From the NCBI GenBank assembly GCA_965221955.1, contig CBDCTA010000029.1, positions 495,852-559,851 of the forward strand: DNA of 64,000 nucleotides, given 5' to 3'. Shown here piece after piece: positions 34,277-44,925 of this stretch. Position 1 is the stretch's first letter. Every line of letters starts with the position of its first letter. The DNA comes from Gammaproteobacteria bacterium. Lineage in GTDB: Bacteria; Pseudomonadota; Gammaproteobacteria; UBA4575. Under the pieces are notes generated by a model. The model did no database searches and was not told where the DNA came from. It saw only the letters and a program-made list of their open reading frames with translations. The translations under genes were made by a program, and so were the position numbers.

Positions 34277-34774
34277 GTGAAGTCATACGAACAATCTGAA
34301 GATGCGATAAGTGATGCTCAGTTAGCGCTAGAGCGTCGTGATCGTCGTGATCGTCGCACACCTTCCTTGAAGGGATTTGTCTATGGCTTGTTTTTGGCCA
34401 GGCGTCGTGGCCCTCGACGTGCAGAAAATTTATATCAATATAGTGATTGGTACGATGTTAAGTTATTAGTGCTATCGCTTAGCTTATTATTGTTGTCGTG
34501 CTTAGATGCTGCGATGACAATGAAGTTGTTATCTTTGGGTGCGGTGGAACTAAACCCAATCATGAACGAGTTGATCAATCAGGGCACACGTTATTTTATT
34601 TGGATTAAAATTGCTATTACTGCGTTGTGTGTCATCGTGCTCGTTGCTCACAATCGTTTTAAGCTGTTTAATTTTTTACGTGTCGACGTAATTCTCATTA
34701 CCGCAGTATTTATTTATCTAGGTTTGGTGACTTACGAGTTTTATCTGTATACCTTGGGTATACCTGCAGTTTAA
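34277..34774 (+). CDS. Membrane protein (DUF5658-like, 4 TM) with N-terminal Arg-rich DRR repeats
   Basis: 165 aa with a GTG start. N-terminal RRDRRDRRTPSLKG...RRRGPRR, followed by four hydrophobic helices. Confidence 0.5.
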   Translation: MKSYEQSEDAISDAQLALERRDRRDRRTPSLKGFVYGLFLARRRGPRRAENLYQYSDWYDVKLLVLSLSLLLLSCLDAAMTMKLLSLGAVELNPIMNELINQGTRYFIWIKIAITALCVIVLVAHNRFKLFNFLRVDVILITAVFIYLGLVTYEFYLYTLGIPAV

Positions 34775-35127
34775 TTAAGCGATCCAATTAAGCTTTCATT
34801 TGGGTCTTGACGGATCTTTTTTAATTCTCTTTTCCAGAGTTTTATATTTTTAGGGCTTACGCCTTTTTCTACACTGTCTAGCCATTGGTCATGGCAGTTC
34901 ATGACGAGTTCTAATCCTTCGTCAGTGAAATCTGAAACCTTTATTTCTAGTGAATGCCAGTCTTCGACTGCTTTGGGTAGTTTGTTTTTATATAAGCTAC
35001 TTTCAAGTAAAAAACCTAATAATGGCTCATATCTTGATTTGAACTTTTCAATCGCATCCAGCTTGGAAGCGTCATCCATTTCTTCGTATATGTACCATTT
35101 GCACGCATCAATCGTGAATTCTTTCAT
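34771..35127 (-). CDS. Hypothetical protein (118 aa)
   Basis: ATG start with aagga SD about 7 nt upstream. No recognisable domain. Lies in the very AT-rich block. Confidence 0.4.
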   Translation of the reverse strand: MKEFTIDACKWYIYEEMDDASKLDAIEKFKSRYEPLLGFLLESSLYKNKLPKAVEDWHSLEIKVSDFTDEGLELVMNCHDQWLDSVEKGVSPKNIKLWKRELKKIRQDPNESLIGSLN

Positions 35128-35283: not shown

Positions 35284-35982
35284 TTACACTTTAACGATCA
35301 CAGCATTAAAGTATTGTGCATATACCTCAAGCGCACGATCTTTTGCTAAACCTAAATGATCGGCGAGTGCTAAATCCATGCCGCGAAAGTTAATGTCATA
35401 ATCTTTTGTATTAGATTCACTTTTGACAAATAAGGGCGACTCTTTGTTATGCAGCAAAAATATTTTCGCAATAGATTGTTCGATAGGTATATCTAGTGAT
35501 ATGTGTCGTAAATCTGAATAATGCTGTTTCGTATGTTCTCTTGCAGCAATAGAGATATCATCAAAACGCGCAGCCAATGCATAAGCTTGTTTGCTATCTA
35601 ACCAAGTTTCTATGTGTTTGCTTTGGAGTTCTAAAATTCTTTCTGCATGCACACTACCTAATTCGCTGATGGCGTAGACGAAAAAAATGTAAAGCTGATA
35701 AAGCTTTATTGCATTTGTGAAAGCAGGAACAAAAGATTTAGGTGTTTCGTGATCTTCTTGTACGGAGTAATTAAATGGGGTGATGTTTTTAAGTAATAAA
35801 TCGAGTGGGTAAAATGCTACGCTTTCAATCGTTCTTACTTCGCTATCAACATCAACGTTTTGATCAATGTGATATTCCTGTAGGCACAGGCGTGCACTAG
35901 ATTTCCGATTCGCGACCTCATTAGCGGTGAGCCCCCAGAGGTCTGGAAAATCGGTTGAATCGATGGGTAGTGATTGCCCCAA
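35284..35982 (-). CDS. Hypothetical protein (232 aa), TTG start
   Basis: There is no in-frame Met in the first 200 aa. The TTG at 35980 is preceded by AGGAG at 6 nt spacing. No recognisable domain. Confidence 0.45.
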   Translation of the reverse strand: MGQSLPIDSTDFPDLWGLTANEVANRKSSARLCLQEYHIDQNVDVDSEVRTIESVAFYPLDLLLKNITPFNYSVQEDHETPKSFVPAFTNAIKLYQLYIFFVYAISELGSVHAERILELQSKHIETWLDSKQAYALAARFDDISIAAREHTKQHYSDLRHISLDIPIEQSIAKIFLLHNKESPLFVKSESNTKDYDINFRGMDLALADHLGLAKDRALEVYAQYFNAVIVKV

Positions 35983-36269
35983 TGGGTGCTCCTAGCGTAA
36001 AGATTAGATACAAATACCTATCTTAAGGGGGCTTTCTAAAGGGGCTCTACAAACTTGAGATCGCCCGTTGTAAAGCAACGATAGAAGGATATTTGCCTAA
36101 TCTAAACCACTGACTTTTTAGTGATAATCCAATATTTTTAGTTAATATCGATTCAAATTGCTAGTAATAAAAATGTGATCTGGTTCGCAATTCGCTTTTG
36201 TGTGTACAATAGCCATAATATTTAGCACGAGTAGTGCTGAACGACTAAGCCACAATAAGTAAAATAAAG

Positions 36270-36818
36270 ATGGGCGAATCAAAACAAATCATTTCTGCAG
36301 CGTTGCAAACTAATGCTAGTCAAGCATCAATGGCAAAAATAAAAAATGGCAAAAATGCTGATGAGCAATTAGCGGATGAAGTTAAAAAGCTAGACCAAAT
36401 CCGTGACATGCTTTTTGGCGAACACGTCGCAGCTTTGCAAGACAAATATCAAACACTAGATAAAAATCTTGATCAAAGCATATCTGTTTTGCGCGAAGAG
36501 CTTAATACCTCAATTGCAGACTTAAAAAAGCAGGTTGATAAGAGATTTGATCAATTGCAAAAGAATTTTCAGGCTGAACAAGTCGATCGTGAGTCACAAC
36601 ATGAAGAGCTAAGCTCTAATCTCGCGTCAATTAATTCAGATATCCTCACAAAGATCGATTTGGAAGCAAAAAGAATCGATCAAGCATTCGATGAACAGCA
36701 GCAGGAATCCACTCGACAAATGAATGAGATGGTTGATTCATTACAAAATGCAAAAGTGGATCGTAAGTCTTTAGCTGCAATATTTAGCCAATTTGCTAAG
36801 GAGCTTGAAGGCTCGTAA
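36270..36818 (+). CDS. Coiled-coil protein (182 aa)
   Basis: Heptad-rich, hydrophilic sequence. It is the first gene of a tightly spaced three-gene + strand cluster. Confidence 0.5.
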   Translation: MGESKQIISAALQTNASQASMAKIKNGKNADEQLADEVKKLDQIRDMLFGEHVAALQDKYQTLDKNLDQSISVLREELNTSIADLKKQVDKRFDQLQKNFQAEQVDRESQHEELSSNLASINSDILTKIDLEAKRIDQAFDEQQQESTRQMNEMVDSLQNAKVDRKSLAAIFSQFAKELEGS

Positions 36819-36830
36819 GCGAGGTTGTAA

Positions 36831-38636
36831 ATGCCTTCGCATATGGCGAAAGTCATGTTGCATCAAAACGAAATTGACGGTGAAGTGAGTCTTGGATCAA
36901 GTATTGGTTCTGCAGATGATCCCAGTGATCTTGAGCAATTACGCAAATTATTATTAGGAAGCGAATATCAAGATCTCTTGAAGCTACAACGTGAATTTTC
37001 TGATCATTCACATGCCAGTGAAAAAATCTCGCAAGTTATTTCAGAAGCGATAGCAATTCGCTCAAAACAAGATGATTCAATATCAAATGCATTGGTTCCA
37101 TCATTAGAAACAGCGATACGTGTTTCTGCAAAGCGTAACCCTAAGCGTTTAGCGAATGCACTGTTCCCTGTGATGGGTCCAGCCATACGTGAATCCGTTG
37201 CAGAAACGGTTGGTGCGATGATGCAGCAAGTGAATCAATTGTTAGAAAATAGTCTAAGCGCACGTTCGATTAAGTGGCGTATTAACGCATTGCGCACCAA
37301 TCGCTCTTTTGCGGAGGTGATGCTTTCTGAAACAGTGCTCTACCAAGTAGAGCAGGTGTTTTTAATTCACCGCGAAACAAGTTTACTCATCAATCACCTT
37401 ACTTCTGCCAATGCAATTGTCAAAGATCCGGATATGGTGTCAAGTATGCTTACTGCTGTAACGGATTTTGTGAAAGATTCATTTGTAGTGGATAAGCAAC
37501 AAAGTGTTAAGTCGATAAAATTTGGACAGCTGAATTTGCTATTCGAGGCTGGACCACACGCAATCATAGTTGCTGCAGTTCGAGGTTTGATTCCATCTGA
37601 CTTGCAAATCACTTTGCGCGAGCAGGTGGAAGAGTTGCATCGTTTATATGGTAGTCAATTAGAAGATTATGATGGGAATACTGAGCAGTTTCCTGATACG
37701 CATGAACAATTAGATAAATGTTTACTAAGTAAGAAAAAAGATGATGCGATCAGATCGGTGAGTGAGAATAAAATACCATGGGCAGCCATAATAGCCTTGA
37801 CTCTGTTAATTCTTTTGCCATTTGTTTGGTGGATATTGAATAAAATTGAACAAAATAAATGGAATGAAATTGTTAATCAGTTACAGGCAGAATCTGGAAT
37901 CGTCATACTGAGTCACCATAAACAGGATGGAGAGTACATTGTTAATGGTTTGCTTGACCCCTTAGCAAAAGACCCAATGGAGATTATTGCTGCTAAAGAA
38001 GATTTTACCAAGGCAGTGCAGCTACAAATGCAATCTTATTATTCTAATGAGGTGAAGATTGTAAATAAGCGTTTGCATAAAGTATTGAATCCACCCAGCA
38101 CGGTAAGAACAATTTTTGCCAATGGCCTATTAACAATAGAAGGTGAAGCCAATCCATCTTGGGTTGCAAGTTTGCCCAATAAACTACCGTTTATCTGGGG
38201 AGTAGATCGTGTAGATACGAGCAAATTACGTAAAATTGAGGATATTCAGCAGAAAATACTGCAACTCATCGGTTCAATTGAGGGCGTTGTAATAGAATAT
38301 TCCTCAAACTCCACAGCCTTGGCTACGAATGATTTAATATCTATCTCAAATATGTTGGATGATATTAATGCGCTTCAGGTGTATACCGCTCAAGCAGGGC
38401 ATGCGTTCAAACTTGGTATATTAGGATTTGCTGATAAATCAGGATCTGATGCAGTAAACAATGAAATTAGTGAGCAGCGTGCAAGAGTAGTGCATGCCGA
38501 ACTCGTAAAGCGAGGAGTAGCGGAAGATAGCTTGTTGGCTAAAGGTCTAGGGCGTTATATCAAGCAGGCTGATCAAAATAGAACGCACAACTGTATTACA
38601 CAACGATGTGTCATATTTGAGGTCTATATAAATTAA
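36831..38636 (+). CDS. Membrane protein with cytoplasmic N-terminal domain, single TM and C-terminal OmpA-like peptidoglycan-binding domain
   Basis: 601 aa. TM segment IPWAAIIALTLLILLPFVWWIL near residue 315. C-terminal LGFADKSGSDAVNNEISEQRARVVHAELVKRG fits the OmpA_C motif. It starts 13 bp after the coiled-coil gene and ends 21 bp before the GGDEF-EAL gene. Confidence 0.55.
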   Translation: MPSHMAKVMLHQNEIDGEVSLGSSIGSADDPSDLEQLRKLLLGSEYQDLLKLQREFSDHSHASEKISQVISEAIAIRSKQDDSISNALVPSLETAIRVSAKRNPKRLANALFPVMGPAIRESVAETVGAMMQQVNQLLENSLSARSIKWRINALRTNRSFAEVMLSETVLYQVEQVFLIHRETSLLINHLTSANAIVKDPDMVSSMLTAVTDFVKDSFVVDKQQSVKSIKFGQLNLLFEAGPHAIIVAAVRGLIPSDLQITLREQVEELHRLYGSQLEDYDGNTEQFPDTHEQLDKCLLSKKKDDAIRSVSENKIPWAAIIALTLLILLPFVWWILNKIEQNKWNEIVNQLQAESGIVILSHHKQDGEYIVNGLLDPLAKDPMEIIAAKEDFTKAVQLQMQSYYSNEVKIVNKRLHKVLNPPSTVRTIFANGLLTIEGEANPSWVASLPNKLPFIWGVDRVDTSKLRKIEDIQQKILQLIGSIEGVVIEYSSNSTALATNDLISISNMLDDINALQVYTAQAGHAFKLGILGFADKSGSDAVNNEISEQRARVVHAELVKRGVAEDSLLAKGLGRYIKQADQNRTHNCITQRCVIFEVYIN

Positions 38637-38656
38637 GTTTTATCAAATTACTTTGT

Positions 38657-40510
38657 ATGAGCAATTCTAATTTCGAAACATTAGTCTCTTTATACCGAAG
38701 ACTTGGGATCGTTGTGTTCGAGCAACGACAAGATAAAAGTTTTTGGTTGATCTCATCGAAACCCGAATGGTTTTCCATGTTAGCTGATTTGAGTAAAGAT
38801 TCTAATCAGGGTCAAGTAAGTGCAATTAAATCTAATGCTCTGAATTCTTTTATTGAAGAAGATGTTCAAAAGATGTGGTCAACTGGGAAAGAGCGAAAAG
38901 TTTCTTCCATTTGGATTGAGGCAGATTCGAGCGAAAATAGTATGCCATTTCAAGCTACGGCTTTGCGCCAAGTAGATAGCATGTTGGTTATTGTTGAACA
39001 TGTACCTAATGCATATGAGGCGAAACAGTCTCAAGCAAAGCAAATGCGTGAAAATGATATATTGAAAGGCTTATTAGAAGATAAAAAAGCAGAACAAGCA
39101 CAAAAAATTGCATCCAGAGAGACCGAGCTTGAACAAGAAATTAGTGAACGTCGCGCCTTAGAGAAACAGTTAACTCATTTAGCCTTTCACGATTCCTTGA
39201 CGGGCTTGCCGAATAGATCCTTGTTTACTGATCGATTGCAAAGAGCGATCGCAGAAGCAGAACGAAAAAAAGAATCAGTGGTGGTAATGTTCGTTGACCT
39301 GGATGATTTCAAAAAAGTGAATGATTCCTTCGGGCATCATGTGGGTGACAAAGTGATTCAGGGTGCTGCTTTGCGTTTAAAGAAATGTTTGCGTGATATT
39401 GACTCCATTGCGCGCTTGGGTGGTGATGAATTTACGTTGTTAGTTCCACATATTGGTGAGCGTGAAGATATTGAAGTAATTGCGAGAAGGTTGATTGAAT
39501 CTTTAGATGAGCCTATTGTTGCCGAGGGCAATGAGTTTCGTATGTCGATCAGTATCGGTATTTCGGTATACCCCAATGACGCGAATAATGAAGACAGCTT
39601 GCTACGTAATGCTGATACTGCAATGTATTTTGCTAAACACACACGTGGGCCTAGTTTTAAATTTTATGAACAGGATATGGGCACATCGCCTTCAAAACGT
39701 TTGGCGTTGGTGTCTGATATTGAGCTCGCTTTACAGCAAAAAGAATTCTTCTTGGTATATCAGCCAATTATTGATGTTAGAAAAATGGAAGTTACAGGTG
39801 CGGAAGCCTTATTGCGTTGGCGCCGTTCTGATGGAGAAATTTTTGAGCCGGATAGATTTATACCCCTTGCATGTGAGTCCGATTTAATTATTAAAATTGG
39901 ATTATGGGTGATTGAACAAAGTTGTACTCAACTTAGAAACTGGCGTGGCATCTATGGTGATAAATTTAGAATGAATATTAATTTATCTGTGCGTGAACTA
40001 GAGTCTAATATATGTAAAGAAAAGTTGCATACGACCATGGATGCATTGAATTTACCTCCAGGGTCTTTAGAGGTTGAAATTACAGACACAGTACCCATCG
40101 AAAATTCGAATATTATGCAAACCAATGTAGAGTTTCTAAAGAGCTTGCATGTTTCTGCTGCAATTGATCGATTTGGAGAACGTCAAACTTCCTTAAAATC
40201 AATTAAAATACTTGGATTGAATGCTATAAAAATTGATCGCTACTTTGTAAATGGCATTGAGTCTGATCAAGATAGCCATGATGTTTTTAATGGTATTGTT
40301 CAATTAAGTTTGAGTTTATCTAAAAATGTTTTAGTTGAAGGCATAGAAACAAAAGAGCAGTTAGATGTCATCCAAAGTATGGATGTAGATGAAGCGCAAG
40401 GCTTTTTCTTTACTCAACCTTTAGAGTCACACTTTTTTGATCAGTGGATGAAAGAGTTTGATAAGAAACAGAAGACCCAGTTAAAAATCGTCAAGCAGAA
40501 GAAAGCTTAA
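38657..40510 (+). CDS. GGDEF-EAL domain protein (diguanylate cyclase/phosphodiesterase) with unknown N-terminal domain
   Basis: 617 aa. Intact GGDEF motif (RLGGDEF). EAL motif reads EALLRW, with downstream DRF and QGF residues. Confidence 0.85.
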   Translation: MSNSNFETLVSLYRRLGIVVFEQRQDKSFWLISSKPEWFSMLADLSKDSNQGQVSAIKSNALNSFIEEDVQKMWSTGKERKVSSIWIEADSSENSMPFQATALRQVDSMLVIVEHVPNAYEAKQSQAKQMRENDILKGLLEDKKAEQAQKIASRETELEQEISERRALEKQLTHLAFHDSLTGLPNRSLFTDRLQRAIAEAERKKESVVVMFVDLDDFKKVNDSFGHHVGDKVIQGAALRLKKCLRDIDSIARLGGDEFTLLVPHIGEREDIEVIARRLIESLDEPIVAEGNEFRMSISIGISVYPNDANNEDSLLRNADTAMYFAKHTRGPSFKFYEQDMGTSPSKRLALVSDIELALQQKEFFLVYQPIIDVRKMEVTGAEALLRWRRSDGEIFEPDRFIPLACESDLIIKIGLWVIEQSCTQLRNWRGIYGDKFRMNINLSVRELESNICKEKLHTTMDALNLPPGSLEVEITDTVPIENSNIMQTNVEFLKSLHVSAAIDRFGERQTSLKSIKILGLNAIKIDRYFVNGIESDQDSHDVFNGIVQLSLSLSKNVLVEGIETKEQLDVIQSMDVDEAQGFFFTQPLESHFFDQWMKEFDKKQKTQLKIVKQKKA

Positions 40511-43437: not shown

Positions 43438-44925
43438 TCAGATCTTTTCGCCGTACTTCTGTTTATGTAATTTTTTAGATTGACTTACCCACTTATCTCG
43501 GTTGATACGATCAGGGAAGCTGCCCAGTGTTTCCGCTAACGCTGTGATGTCATCTTTTGTTAGGCGGCCTAACTGTTCATAGGAGTACACACCAAAGTCA
43601 TTTAGTTTGCCTTCCATTACAGGGCCGATACCTTTTACAACCTGTAAATCATCTTTTACTTTTGCAGCCGCAATTTTTAAGCCTTTTGCGGGTGCCTTTA
43701 ATCCTGCTGCAGGTTTGTTAACTGTTTTTGGTTTAGCTTTTTTTGCAACGGGTTTGGGTCGAGGAGACACCAGCTGAGTTTTAATTTTGTTTTTAAATGC
43801 CTCGATTGTATGTTCATGCTCACGCAACATTGATAAATCAAGCTTGGATGACTGAAGCTCGCTTTCTAAAGTAGACATTTTAGTTTTATATTCCTGTACT
43901 ACTGCAGCGCTTGAAGCTTGCGCGCGACTTTCAGCAGTGCGTAGTTGTTCACGTAAATCATCAATCACTGCGTCTTTTTCTTCACAAGTATCTACAAATA
44001 CACGTTCTTTTTCGCTGGCCTCAAGTTTTACTTCATTGATCTGTTTGTAAGTACGGCCTAAAACTGTATTTTTAGATGTGCCAATTAACCGTACTTTATC
44101 CATGAAACGGTTAAATTTAGTGTCTTGGCCTGGCTGGTCACCTTCTAATGGAGTTAGTTCATGCAAACGGTTACGAAGCTTGCCTAATTCATCCTGATTA
44201 CGTGAATTCTGCTCTGCTAAATCTTTGTTGCGTAACCTCTGCAATTCGTCAATTTCTGCTTGAGATTTATTTTGTAATGCATATAAATCAGCTTTTGCCG
44301 CGCCAAGTTGTTTTTCTAACTCAGGGTTCAAATGCATGCGGTCTTGTTTCCATTTGCTTTGGATTTGGCTGATCATGGCATATAGACTTTTTGTATCATT
44401 CTCTGATGTGGTGACCTTGTCATTTAGGCTTTGTACTTTTTCGATCATCTCATCGAGTCGATATTTATAAGACTCTTGATCCGTTACGTGCTTATTAAGA
44501 CGTTTAATTTTCAGGTTCGCATCAGCATGTAAATCTGAATAATGGCTAGCAAGATTTTCAAAATCATTACGTTCACTTAGTGTTTGTTGATACATGCTTT
44601 GAACTTTTTTAAGCCAAGTTTGATGCGCGGGTAATTGTTTAGCTTTTTCAAGTGAGGTTTGCCAGCGCGATGTCATCAACATTAGATCGCTACTTTGGCG
44701 GTCATATTTGGCTTGTATATCTCCACACTGAGTTTTGTAGGCAACGGTTTGTTCTTTGGAATCTTCTAATTCACGTGTCTGGAGATTAATTTTGTTTTCT
44801 AAATCTTCACGCAATGCATTCATATTACGATTACATGTCCAGCGGCTGACAAGCCATCCAACCAATATTCCTAGTGCTGCGGCACCTAATAGGTAAACGA
44901 GTAACTCATTTAATAAATAGCTCAT
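43438..44925 (-). CDS. Membrane-anchored long coiled-coil protein with C-terminal helix-hairpin-helix-like (DUF4332-like) domain
   Basis: 495 aa. N-terminal TM segment LLVYLLGAAALGILVGWLV. About 380 aa of coiled coil. C-terminal VVKGIGPVMEGKLNDFGVYSYEQL is an HhH-like motif. Confidence 0.5.
   Translation of the reverse strand: MSYLLNELLVYLLGAAALGILVGWLVSRWTCNRNMNALREDLENKINLQTRELEDSKEQTVAYKTQCGDIQAKYDRQSSDLMLMTSRWQTSLEKAKQLPAHQTWLKKVQSMYQQTLSERNDFENLASHYSDLHADANLKIKRLNKHVTDQESYKYRLDEMIEKVQSLNDKVTTSENDTKSLYAMISQIQSKWKQDRMHLNPELEKQLGAAKADLYALQNKSQAEIDELQRLRNKDLAEQNSRNQDELGKLRNRLHELTPLEGDQPGQDTKFNRFMDKVRLIGTSKNTVLGRTYKQINEVKLEASEKERVFVDTCEEKDAVIDDLREQLRTAESRAQASSAAVVQEYKTKMSTLESELQSSKLDLSMLREHEHTIEAFKNKIKTQLVSPRPKPVAKKAKPKTVNKPAAGLKAPAKGLKIAAAKVKDDLQVVKGIGPVMEGKLNDFGVYSYEQLGRLTKDDITALAETLGSFPDRINRDKWVSQSKKLHKQKYGEKI

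Follow-up and report, generated by a model that had tools for sequence, protein, structure and literature searches.

Three adjacent genes in a 64-kb stretch of DNA (hereafter the window) encode a coiled-coil protein (A), a membrane protein ending in an OmpA-like domain (B) and a GGDEF-EAL protein (C), which raises the question of what kind of system connects the cell envelope with c-di-GMP at this locus. The initial annotation proposed an envelope-tethered signalling complex of a kind not described before. An envelope-tethered module feeding c-di-GMP is a reasonable reading of the three genes. The claim of novelty did not hold, since the trio corresponds to the neighbourhood of the Group 1 Rup GTPases described in 2014 (Wuichet and Søgaard-Andersen 2014; PMC4316618). 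The most unusual feature of the locus, which lay beyond what the initial annotation could see, is the absence of the GTPase gene.

Gene order and conservation of the cassette

A, B and C are co-oriented open reading frames with gaps of 12 nt (A-B) and 20 nt (B-C), and the A-B-C order was found again in seven related genomes (Table 1). The three-gene operon and its short gaps were thus borne out, and only the spacings first given (13 and 21 bp) need correction. In the public annotation (P0001), B starts at 36843, which yields a protein of 597 aa and an A-B gap of 24 nt; a GAGG sequence lies 6 nt 5′ of the ATG at 36831. A consensus scan detected neither sigma-70-like nor terminator-like sites in the two intergenic gaps. 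Upstream of A, the −10-like hexamer TACAAT (36205-36210) of a candidate promoter element, TTTTGTGTGTACAATAG, is located 59 nt 5′ of the start codon. The element occurs once in the window, and a GTGTA.AATA core shows no variation when the sequences upstream of A from seven clade members are aligned; the consensus promoter scan did not pick it up, leaving it with candidate status only.

Table 1. Genes and predicted features of the locus, with positions in the window.
Feature	Position	Strand	Description
Candidate promoter element	36196..36212	+	−10-like hexamer upstream of A
Gene A	36270..36818	+	182 aa; cytoplasmic, all-helical coiled-coil protein
Gene B	36831..38636	+	601 aa; bitopic inner-membrane protein, "DUF + TM + OmpA" component of the Group 1 Rup neighbourhood
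B aa 30-165	36918..37325	+	Conserved cytoplasmic helical region; motifs LR.LLLG and ALFPVMGPAIR
B aa 169-295	37335..37715	+	Cytoplasmic longin-like α/β domain (predicted); β-β-α-β-β-β-α(-α)
B aa 315-336	37773..37838	+	Single transmembrane helix, N-terminus cytoplasmic (predicted)
B aa 354-470	37890..38240	+	Periplasmic; two β-β-α repeats, possibly BON-like
B aa 487-600	38289..38630	+	OmpA-like peptidoglycan-binding domain
Gene C	38657..40510	+	617 aa; soluble output enzyme: PAS-like input domain, signalling helix, GGDEF, EAL
C aa 1-116	38657..39004	+	Divergent PAS-like domain specific to the cassette; corresponds to the "N-term" region of Group 1 Rup outputs
C aa 117-175	39005..39181	+	Long helix or coiled-coil linker; K128 at the Gln column, then Q129 and R131
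C aa 176-329	39182..39643	+	GGDEF diguanylate-cyclase domain; Pfam E 2.4e-51, full-length match
C aa 354-588	39716..40420	+	EAL domain with partly non-canonical active site; Pfam E 1e-57

Protein A carries a conserved N-terminal D..R.ILFG and C-terminal K.DR..LA motif, contains neither a hydrophobic segment nor proline, and belongs to no Pfam family, matching only coiled-coil families such as apolipoprotein, and these weakly. A jackhmmer search seeded with A from the window recovered 75 homologues, nearly all encoded directly upstream of B homologues. Co-occurrence across genomes, suggested as a check of the initial annotation, was analysed in a six-frame HMM census of 87 sources, in which the A-B pair was conserved in several phyla. 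Because an A-like gene adjoined a B-like gene in 84 of 85 testable loci, and the N-terminal domain of C recurred in an output protein after A-B in 73 of 87, the three genes are very likely co-transcribed, as first proposed, and functionally coupled. In at least 80 species, spread over several phyla, genes for homologues of A, B and the C N-terminal domain are neighbours, and a Ras-like GTPase gene nearly always separates B from the output gene. The arrangement was ABGN in 62 sources, ABG- in nine and AB-N in eight; three more were AB-- and had a divergent Rup nearby. Pfam assigned 56 of the 80 genes called at position +1 to Ras/Roc/Arf; the +2 position was occupied by histidine kinases, HD-GYP proteins and others.

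This arrangement matches the conserved neighbourhood of Group 1 Rup, which was found computationally and comprises a coiled-coil protein, a protein with an unknown domain, a transmembrane segment and an OmpA domain, and an output protein, either a GGDEF/EAL fusion or a histidine kinase, whose N-terminal region is conserved (PMC4316618). According to the same study, Rup lacks the G3 glutamine, and an invariant Gln in the output N-terminal region was proposed as the catalytic residue acting in trans. Consistently, the G3 motif in our alignment of cassette GTPases was WDxxG[E] in 41 of 61 sequences, with Q in only 3 of 61. In HMM searches, the cassette's three components other than the GTPase proved homologous to A, B and the N-terminal ~135 aa of C.

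Domain architecture of B and C

More than 1,500 homologues of protein B were found, and among GTDB representatives at least 541 species encode one. Alignments with homologues encoded at loci that contain the GTPase cover 90-99% of B, and the 35 invariant columns fall mostly in the cytoplasmic domain. Pfam recognised only the OmpA domain (aa 527-585; score 32.5 bits, cut-off 27.2), and the first ~310 aa had no sequence match in Pfam, NCBIfam or the PDB. The single transmembrane helix and the C-terminal OmpA-like domain given in the initial annotation were borne out. In the AF2 model (pLDDT 72), aa 30-165 appear as helices at low confidence (pLDDT 44-66) without a fold assignment, and the alignment of this region has invariant P113, G116, P117, I119, R120, W149 and R150. 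The following region, aa 169-295, is modelled at moderate confidence (pLDDT 54-85) as the five-stranded antiparallel sheet with β-β-α-β-β-β-α-α topology that is typical of longins, suggesting a longin-like domain. A Pfam scan with 38 family members as queries at E ≤ 10 gave a single hit to Fuz_longin_1 from one member (E 0.057), and a profile search against PDB sequences returned nothing relevant. Neither a Robl_LC7 match nor the α-β-β-α-β-β-β fold of Roadblock/LC7 (MglB-like) proteins was found in B.

The transmembrane helix of B reaches a Kyte-Doolittle 19-residue maximum of 2.58, is preceded on its N-terminal side by the Lys-rich SKKKDDAIRSVSENK, and forms part of one long helix (317-353) in the model. 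An N-in topology is inferred because the OmpA-like domain must reach peptidoglycan. The periplasmic repeats, modelled with a pLDDT of about 85-92, may be BON-like, as Foldseek aligned 263 columns of B with Rv0899/ArfA (2l26, a BON + OmpA-like protein); this label is tentative because Pfam BON did not match B. In the OmpA-like domain, the PF00691 score is above the gathering threshold, and both the fold and the Asp and Arg that contact diaminopimelate are present.

Protein C has no transmembrane segment. Its N-terminal domain is predicted to form a five-stranded sheet flanked by helices and followed by a C-terminal signalling helix, as in PAS domains, and the model places a helix at 117-140. 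Iterated searches with aa 1-135 reached the N-termini of ~66 output proteins encoded next to B, with E values as low as 1e-49. The initial annotation considered both catalytic signatures of C intact. For the GGDEF domain this was confirmed: its sequence bears the diguanylate cyclase signature, with the GGDEF motif at 255 and an RxxD I-site (RDID) at 246. The EAL domain agreed only in part. It retains EAL at 383, N440, E471, K525, E561 and Q581, and deviates in having DRFG for DDFG (D504-R505), a degenerate loop 6 (GERQTS for GTGYSS) and EITD for ELTE, all kept in 7/7 clade members. EAL domains that deviate in part may or may not be active, class II being an example of functional ones (PMC12900916); that of C probably has reduced or purely regulatory activity.

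The missing GTPase and its explanation

From 61 cassette GTPases we built a Rup profile and ran it by six-frame hmmsearch (E ≤ 1e-3) against the 64 kb of this genome and ~10-18 kb of each relative (±5-8 kb around B). Neither the window nor the seven relatives (L001-3 and L007-10) gave a hit or a Rup-like ORF fragment in any frame, whereas the profile hit 77 other sources at E 1e-39 to 1e-78. The window and its seven closest relatives are thus the only loci among the 87 that have room for the gene and no GTPase. The output protein has changed in parallel, its N-terminal domain having 14 of 26 conserved columns left, against 86 of 95 in B. Column 128 of C is Q in 57 of 57 Rup-linked sequences and K, L and Q in five, one and one of the seven clade members, respectively (K128 in the window), a correlation with the absence of Rup that counts as a single evolutionary event and not as seven independent ones. 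In an NJ tree without support values, the clade falls inside the gammaproteobacterial ABGN/HD-GYP group. Most likely, this lineage lost the GTPase and its output is now a c-di-GMP enzyme.

The operon probably derives from the four-gene Group 1 Rup cassette by loss of the GTPase, with an A-B platform signalling directly to C. B would be held in the inner membrane by its one transmembrane helix and fixed to peptidoglycan by the periplasmic OmpA-like domain, next to the two possibly BON-like repeats, and together with the coiled-coil A it would present a cytoplasmic platform of helical and longin-like parts. In the ancestral system, this platform might have regulated Rup, by analogy with the longin and Roadblock platforms of small GTPases, and Rup in turn would have controlled the PAS-like domain of the output protein. 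If Rup was lost and the output swapped to GGDEF-EAL in this lineage, the platform would most likely contact the diverged PAS-like domain of C directly. A change in the envelope or peptidoglycan state sensed by B could then pass through the long helix of C to the GGDEF domain and alter c-di-GMP synthesis, with the I-site providing product feedback and the EAL domain probably contributing reduced or purely regulatory activity. The 2014 computational paper was the only literature found on the cassette, with no experimental study of any component, and we therefore infer all of these mechanistic steps.

Alternatively, Rup might have been relocated elsewhere in the chromosome, with A, B and C still working through it as a canonical four-component system. 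The search scope of 64 kb of the genome leaves room for this, and of the 95 columns that are conserved among homologues linked to Rup, B keeps 86, with the longin-like core complete; R131 and L135 are also kept beside the Gln column, and a Gln occurs one residue downstream in all seven clade members. However, Rup lies within ~1.5 kb of B in all 77 Rup-bearing loci, and it is missing from 8/8 clade loci, where just 12-47 nt separate B from C. Moreover, six of seven clade members have another residue in place of the otherwise invariant Gln (L010 retains it), and the SPFL motif of the C N-terminal domain no longer has its nearly invariant P60/F61, as would be anticipated after loss of the Rup partner. 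Relocation is therefore unlikely. The loss of 12 of the 26 conserved positions in the C N-terminal domain, and an EAL active site departing from the canonical form, would also suit a decaying remnant, non-functional after the loss of Rup, with C an ordinary stand-alone GGDEF-EAL enzyme. This is quite improbable, as the three reading frames are intact in eight genomes whose B proteins are only 55-86% identical, and the conserved columns of B are kept. In addition, the clade-specific N60, K128/Q129 and DRFG(D/E)R are themselves conserved in the clade, implying purifying selection on the new state.

The remaining explanations dispense with the Rup cassette. That the distinctive parts of all three proteins lack a curated family, C being a c-di-GMP enzyme and B peptidoglycan-anchored, might be taken to indicate a previously undescribed, self-contained complex unrelated to known systems. 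Yet all three distinctive parts are homologous to published Group 1 Rup components, and GGDEF/EAL outputs are explicitly named in PMC4316618, making this reading very improbable. A Zorya-like or other anti-phage defence module, with a peptidoglycan-anchored sensor and a coiled-coil tail, is hardly credible. The ZorAB pair (a MotA-like ZorA with transmembrane helices and a MotB-like ZorB) is not found, since the locus has no MotA/ExbB-like membrane protein and A has no transmembrane segment. PADLOC returned only weak hits (E ≥ 1.5e-4), all of them within the coiled-coil tail or the OmpA-like domain, and the locus is accompanied by housekeeping genes in conserved synteny (ispG, yjbQ, a HAD hydrolase and alr), with no nuclease or other effector genes.

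Comparison with known systems

Among proteins of solved structure, the best match to C (aa 175-595) is MorA of P. aeruginosa (PDB 4rnh, 313 bits). The GGDEF motif, the I-site and most EAL catalytic positions align, whereas MorA has the DDFG and GTGYSS that are altered in C, and its inputs are membrane and PAS sensors in place of the cassette-specific PAS-like domain. YfiBNR (TpbB) of Pseudomonas and E. coli resembles the locus in coupling an OmpA-like peptidoglycan-binding protein to a diguanylate cyclase, so that the envelope state controls c-di-GMP, and YfiB structures were among the OmpA-like structural hits. YfiB is an outer-membrane lipoprotein whose action on a membrane-bound PAS-HAMP-GGDEF cyclase goes through YfiR, a periplasmic repressor. 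In contrast, B is predicted to span the inner membrane with a large (~310-aa) cytoplasmic region and an internal transmembrane helix, without a lipoprotein signal; C is soluble, and the operon has no YfiR-like gene. NCBIfam YfiB scored only 28.7 bits on B against a cut-off of 128, placing the locus outside YfiBNR.

The longin-like region of B has 6-13% identity and no profile-level similarity to the eukaryotic and Asgard longin regulators (Mon1-Ccz1, TRAPP subunits, the N-domains of AP sigma/mu, and the longins of Sec22/Ykt6/VAMP7), leaving common descent without sequence support; the context of B is, moreover, bacterial, membrane-anchored and peptidoglycan-tethered. The concept is shared by MglA/MglB and the actinobacterial conservon (CvnA-D/Mfp), in which a small Ras-like GTPase is wired to a membrane-associated sensor by a Roadblock/longin-type α/β platform protein, with two-component-type outputs; this analogy was proposed by Wuichet and Søgaard-Andersen (PMC4316618). 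The nearest counterpart is Group 1 Rup itself, known as a conserved neighbourhood only. The locus shares with it the gene order, the upstream coiled-coil protein, the unknown domain-TM-OmpA protein and the output N-terminal region, and differs in the absence of a nearby Rup-type GTPase gene and in having Lys at the position of the proposed catalytic Gln. If our reading is true, the locus would be a variant of this neighbourhood in which a peptidoglycan-anchored platform signals to its output without a GTPase.

Organisation of the operon and its flanks

The three co-oriented open reading frames, here termed A (coiled-coil protein), B (membrane protein with an OmpA-like domain) and C (GGDEF-EAL protein), were found exactly where the initial annotation had placed them, and the gaps were as short as it had described, although they measured 12 nt (A-B) and 20 nt (B-C) instead of its 13 and 21 bp. 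No promoter-like or terminator-like site was found in either gap by a consensus scan, and the same type of scan of the region upstream of the genes yielded nothing useful. The start codon of B is preceded by GAGG 6 nt upstream. In contrast, the spacer before C (GTTTTATCAAATTACTTTGT) carries no Shine-Dalgarno-like sequence, and translation of C may require coupling to B or the AU-rich leader. The ispG gene is convergent with C, 11 nt from its 3′ end.

Coordinates of the operon, its internal features and neighbouring elements in the window
Feature	Position (nt)	Strand or orientation	Description
118-aa gene	34771-35127	-	Divergent from operon
232-aa gene	35284-35982	-	Divergent from operon
Conserved block	36047-36093		~45 nt, between the 232-aa gene and A
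A	36270-36818	Co-oriented with B and C	182-aa ORF
Helix motif of A	36375-36440		aa 36-57
B	36831-38636	Co-oriented with A and C	601-aa ORF
Helix motif of B	36918-36990		aa 30-53
Spacer before C	38637-38656		20 nt
C	38657-40510	Co-oriented with A and B	617-aa ORF
495-aa protein gene	43438-44925	-	N-terminal hydrophobic segment (weak LapA_dom match)

A family search with A gave weak coiled-coil noise and no other match, and no hydrophobic segment was found in this protein. The architecture proposed for the middle protein held: B has a single hydrophobic helix (aa 315-336), its Pfam match is confined to the last ~75 residues (OmpA, 32.5 bits; cut-off 27.2), and aa 1-310 could not be linked to a family by any sequence or profile method. 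Because the B homologues combine a large cytoplasmic domain, one transmembrane (TM) helix and a periplasmic OmpA-like domain, they are inner-membrane proteins and not porins. Several public sources label the family "OOP family OmpA-OmpF porin" or "outer membrane protein OmpA-like"; the name "OmpA/OmpF porin" is misleading and should be dropped.

C contains full-length GGDEF (E 2e-51) and EAL (E 1e-57) domains, with an RxxD I-site at residue 246, GGDEF at 255 and EAL at 383, and aligned to MorA (PDB 4rnh) with 313 bits. Both signatures had been considered intact, which applies to GGDEF and to the EAL motif itself but only in part to the EAL active site, where DDFG, loop 6 and ELTE all deviate. 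In the MorA alignment, the DDFGTGYSS of active enzymes is replaced in C by D504-R505-F-G-E-R-Q-T-S, and their ELTE by EITD. This deviation was kept in all seven close homologues.

The block upstream of A (CTTGAGATCG...CGATAGAAGGAT) was almost invariant in 6-7 genomes of the clade formed by the window and its seven closest relatives (L001-L003 and L007-L010), whereas the rest of the spacer differed widely. It contains an invariant inverted repeat, ATCG-N13-CGAT, and a search for RNA structure gave an invariant stem of only 5 bp. Since it showed no meaningful covariation and had no Rfam match, the block may be a protein-binding operator common to both divergent transcription units. The 118-aa and 232-aa genes had no Pfam or PADLOC match; their position was kept in L003 and L007-L010, they were absent from the cassette loci of other lineages, and their tie to the operon is one of general synteny. 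In the 495-aa protein, which was assigned to no family, the N-terminal segment is followed by a long coiled coil that a Lys/Ala/Pro-rich linker joins to a C-terminal helix-hairpin-helix-like motif (VKGIGPVMEGKLNDFG); the position of its gene was kept in L001-L003 and L008-L010.

The Group 1 Rup cassette and its distribution

The operon is a GTPase-less variant of the Group 1 Rup cassette with a GGDEF-EAL output, and not a new kind of system. "Group 1 Rup" GTPases were defined by Wuichet and Søgaard-Andersen (Genome Biol Evol 2014; PMC4316618), who reported their genes with three conserved genes; the neighbours include a cytoplasmic coiled-coil protein, a protein that combines a TM helix and an OmpA domain with a conserved but unknown domain, and an output module with an invariant Gln in its N-terminal region. 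Because these GTPases lack the catalytic Gln in G3, the authors speculated that the output-module Gln could be supplied in trans (PMC4316618). The G3 feature was reproduced in our Rup alignment, in which WDxxG was followed by E in 41 of 61 sequences and by Q in three. Thus, the architecture that the initial annotation had called "of a kind not described" corresponds to a described but uncharacterised neighbourhood (PMC4316618). The cassette is widespread, its GTPases are the bacterial ones reported as most similar to eukaryotic Rab/Ras/Rho/Ran, and the searchable literature contains no experimental work on the system.

More than 1,500 B homologues were present in the protein collection, and a pattern scan covering a single genome for each GTDB species revealed relatives in at least 541 of them, with taxa including Thiotrichales, other Gammaproteobacteria, Acidobacteriota, filamentous Cyanobacteria, Verrucomicrobiota, Armatimonadota and Desulfobacterales. 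For a census of gene order, 80 loci from the pattern scan and six from exact-protein look-ups were sampled, with 87 sources counted. Loci were annotated with profiles from the window proteins and a neighbouring GTPase on six-frame translations, so gene-calling errors in high-GC genomes had no effect. The pattern was very regular. The order A-B-G-N was found in 62 loci, where G is a Ras/Roc/Arf-type GTPase of ~165 aa (Pfam Ras, E down to 9e-35) and N a protein beginning with a homologue of C aa 1-135 (the N-domain). The GTPase was absent from eight loci with A-B-N; nine had A-B-G followed by a different output, three A-B, one B-G-N without a separate, possibly B-fused, A gene (L075), and four were cut off by a contig end. 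This co-occurrence across genomes supports the suggested functional coupling of the three genes.

The output proteins were hybrid histidine kinases in the majority of cases, but in Gammaproteobacteria most were HD-GYP proteins; PAS-only proteins, a GAF-kinase and a nucleotide cyclase were also found. The N-domain family is of moderate size (1,378 clusters among 1.84 billion representatives). A homologue search with C aa 1-174 gave three matches, and one with the N-domain alignment returned mostly short or truncated proteins; both served as an alignment for structure prediction and not for the output census. Many stand-alone cassette-specific PAS-like domains of ~128-130 aa and ~185 aa occurred, mostly in soil metagenomes and Vicinamibacterales (collection entries P0129-P0226), and the domain can thus act without a covalently attached output.

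Several loci departed from the common order. In the three Desulfobacterales A-B loci (L005, 2259-5008; L006, 235-2984; L085), Rup lies upstream, divergent from A-B, and shares an operon with a sigma-54 enhancer-binding protein, and B is followed by a convergent PAS histidine kinase instead of an N-domain output; here the cassette is wired in a third way, towards transcription. In six Pyrinomonadaceae loci (L027, L043, L050, L059, L078 and L080), Rup is followed by a gene for a ~290-aa protein that carries a canonical C-terminal Pfam PAS domain and in which the profile did not detect the N-domain. The output step may be differently organised there, or a highly diverged N-domain may make up the N-terminal ~170 aa. 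An 800-aa B homologue with an apparently fused A-like segment (L075, 7452-9740) and a 445-aa gene after B with an internal Rup-profile match (L064, 4648-5982) both come from crude ORF calls and could be artefacts; if real, these fusions would provide Rosetta-stone support for physical interaction.

Absence of the GTPase gene from the loci of the window clade

The eight A-B-N loci coincided exactly with the window plus its seven closest relatives, metagenome-assembled genomes labelled Thiotrichales or Gammaproteobacteria whose B proteins are 55%-86% identical to that of the window. The GGDEF-EAL gene lies 12-47 nt downstream of B in each of these loci. No Rup-like fragment was detected in any frame of the seven relative loci or the whole 64-kb window, whereas Rup was found at E 1e-39 to 1e-78 in all remaining loci that could accommodate the gene. 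In a neighbour-joining tree of B (midpoint-rooted, without support values), the clade was nested inside a gammaproteobacterial group including Thiothrix, Thiolinea, Thiofilum, Pseudohongiella and others, all with Rup and an HD-GYP output. Most simply, rup would have been deleted secondarily, together with a swap of HD-GYP for GGDEF-EAL, both of which act on c-di-GMP. The analysis itself shows the homologies, the gene order, the absence of rup from these loci, the residue patterns and the predicted folds; descent of the operon from a Rup cassette is highly probable.

The proteins left behind have changed unequally. Of 95 columns with at least 85% conservation among Rup-linked homologues, B retains 86, and the N-domain of C keeps only 14 of 26. 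The Gln column (K128 in the window C) holds Q in all 57 Rup-linked sequences; in the clade it holds K five times, L once and Q once, a Rup and Gln pattern that represents one evolutionary event. The SPFL motif has also lost its nearly invariant Pro-Phe, R131 and L135 near the Gln column are still conserved, and a Gln one residue downstream has become fixed. The comparison distinguishes positions linked to the GTPase (Gln128 and SPFL of the output domain) from those linked to the platform, B being almost unchanged.

Relocation of rup to another part of the genome is disfavoured by the losses of Gln and SPFL in C and by tight linkage, since rup, where present, always lies no more than about 1.5 kb from B. 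The residue pattern fits true loss better, and, judged from a search covering the 64-kb window and the fetched relative loci, rup is probably absent from the genome. Decay of the operon into a remnant is likewise disfavoured: eight diverged genomes all have intact reading frames, and clade members share the newly acquired residues.

Predicted folds, proposed mechanism and comparison with known systems

A template-free AlphaFold2 model of B, based on a 38-sequence alignment, had a mean pLDDT of 72 (~90 in the periplasmic part, 54-85 for aa 169-295 and < 60 for aa 1-165). It contains a long TM helix and, at aa 354-470, two beta-beta-alpha repeats that tentatively resemble the Rv0899 BON domain. 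The cytoplasmic domain is predicted to be longin-like, a term that denotes the modelled fold without implying homology, and the output N-domain is predicted to be PAS-like. Single-sequence and profile searches of the PDB with the cytoplasmic domain returned apolipoprotein-type noise only. Roadblock/LC7, a first guess from reading the B sequence, was not borne out, and weak Snf7/ESCRT-III matches (E 0.03-0.06 in 7 of 38 members) fell in low-confidence helices and were regarded as coiled-coil noise. A similar helix motif opens the conserved parts of A, L(D).IRD(I/M)LFG, and of B, L..LR.LLLG.EY, with (L/I)R.(I/L)L(F/L)G in common; it is conserved across each family. Local hhalign of A against the N-terminal helical region of B gave P 0.0026 with a probability of only 11% over 23 columns, and the motif could be a common interaction or dimerisation helix, or due to chance.

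The predicted longin-like and PAS-like folds turn an anonymous neighbourhood into a concrete model of platform, GTPase and effector. B would be an inner-membrane protein pinned to peptidoglycan that forms a cytoplasmic platform with A. In the ancestral cassette, the longin-like domain would regulate Rup, by analogy with the longin/Roadblock platforms for small GTPases in eukaryotes, archaea and Myxococcus, and Rup would control the PAS-like domain of the output protein, with the helix Gln possibly serving as a GAP-type residue. In the window lineage, with the GTPase step removed, the platform would most likely engage the remodelled PAS-like domain of C directly, although we propose this B-to-C coupling only tentatively. 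Periplasmic or peptidoglycan-linked changes sensed by B could then shift the register of the helix into GGDEF and alter c-di-GMP synthesis, with feedback from the I-site. The EAL domain, without the second metal-binding Asp and canonical loop 6, might work at a reduced rate or serve as a regulatory or binding domain. Because c-di-GMP is easily measured, the operon is suited to a first genetic and biochemical dissection of what a peptidoglycan-anchored sensor detects.

The most far-reaching reading, in which the B cytoplasmic domain is a genuine bacterial longin acting as the cognate GEF/GAP-type platform for Group 1 Rup, appears unlikely. If it were true, the longin-small GTPase pairing central to eukaryotic membrane traffic would already be bacterial, membrane-anchored and peptidoglycan-tethered. 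The window lineage would then amount to a natural deletion experiment on the GTPase, in which the correlated Gln loss would support action of the output Gln on the GTPase in trans and direct driving of a PAS-GGDEF-EAL enzyme would show that the longin platform can be rewired. Compared with the single paper that the searchable literature offers on this cassette, the new elements are the natural GTPase loss with correlated loss of the proposed trans-Gln, the predicted longin-like fold of the membrane protein and the predicted PAS-like fold of the output input-domain. A Zorya-like or other defence role was rejected, as coiled-coil and OmpA-like matches were weak and the MotA-like partner was absent. 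The window operon has none of the defining features of YfiBNR, which it resembles by analogy of function, in that a cyclase would be controlled by an OmpA-like protein.
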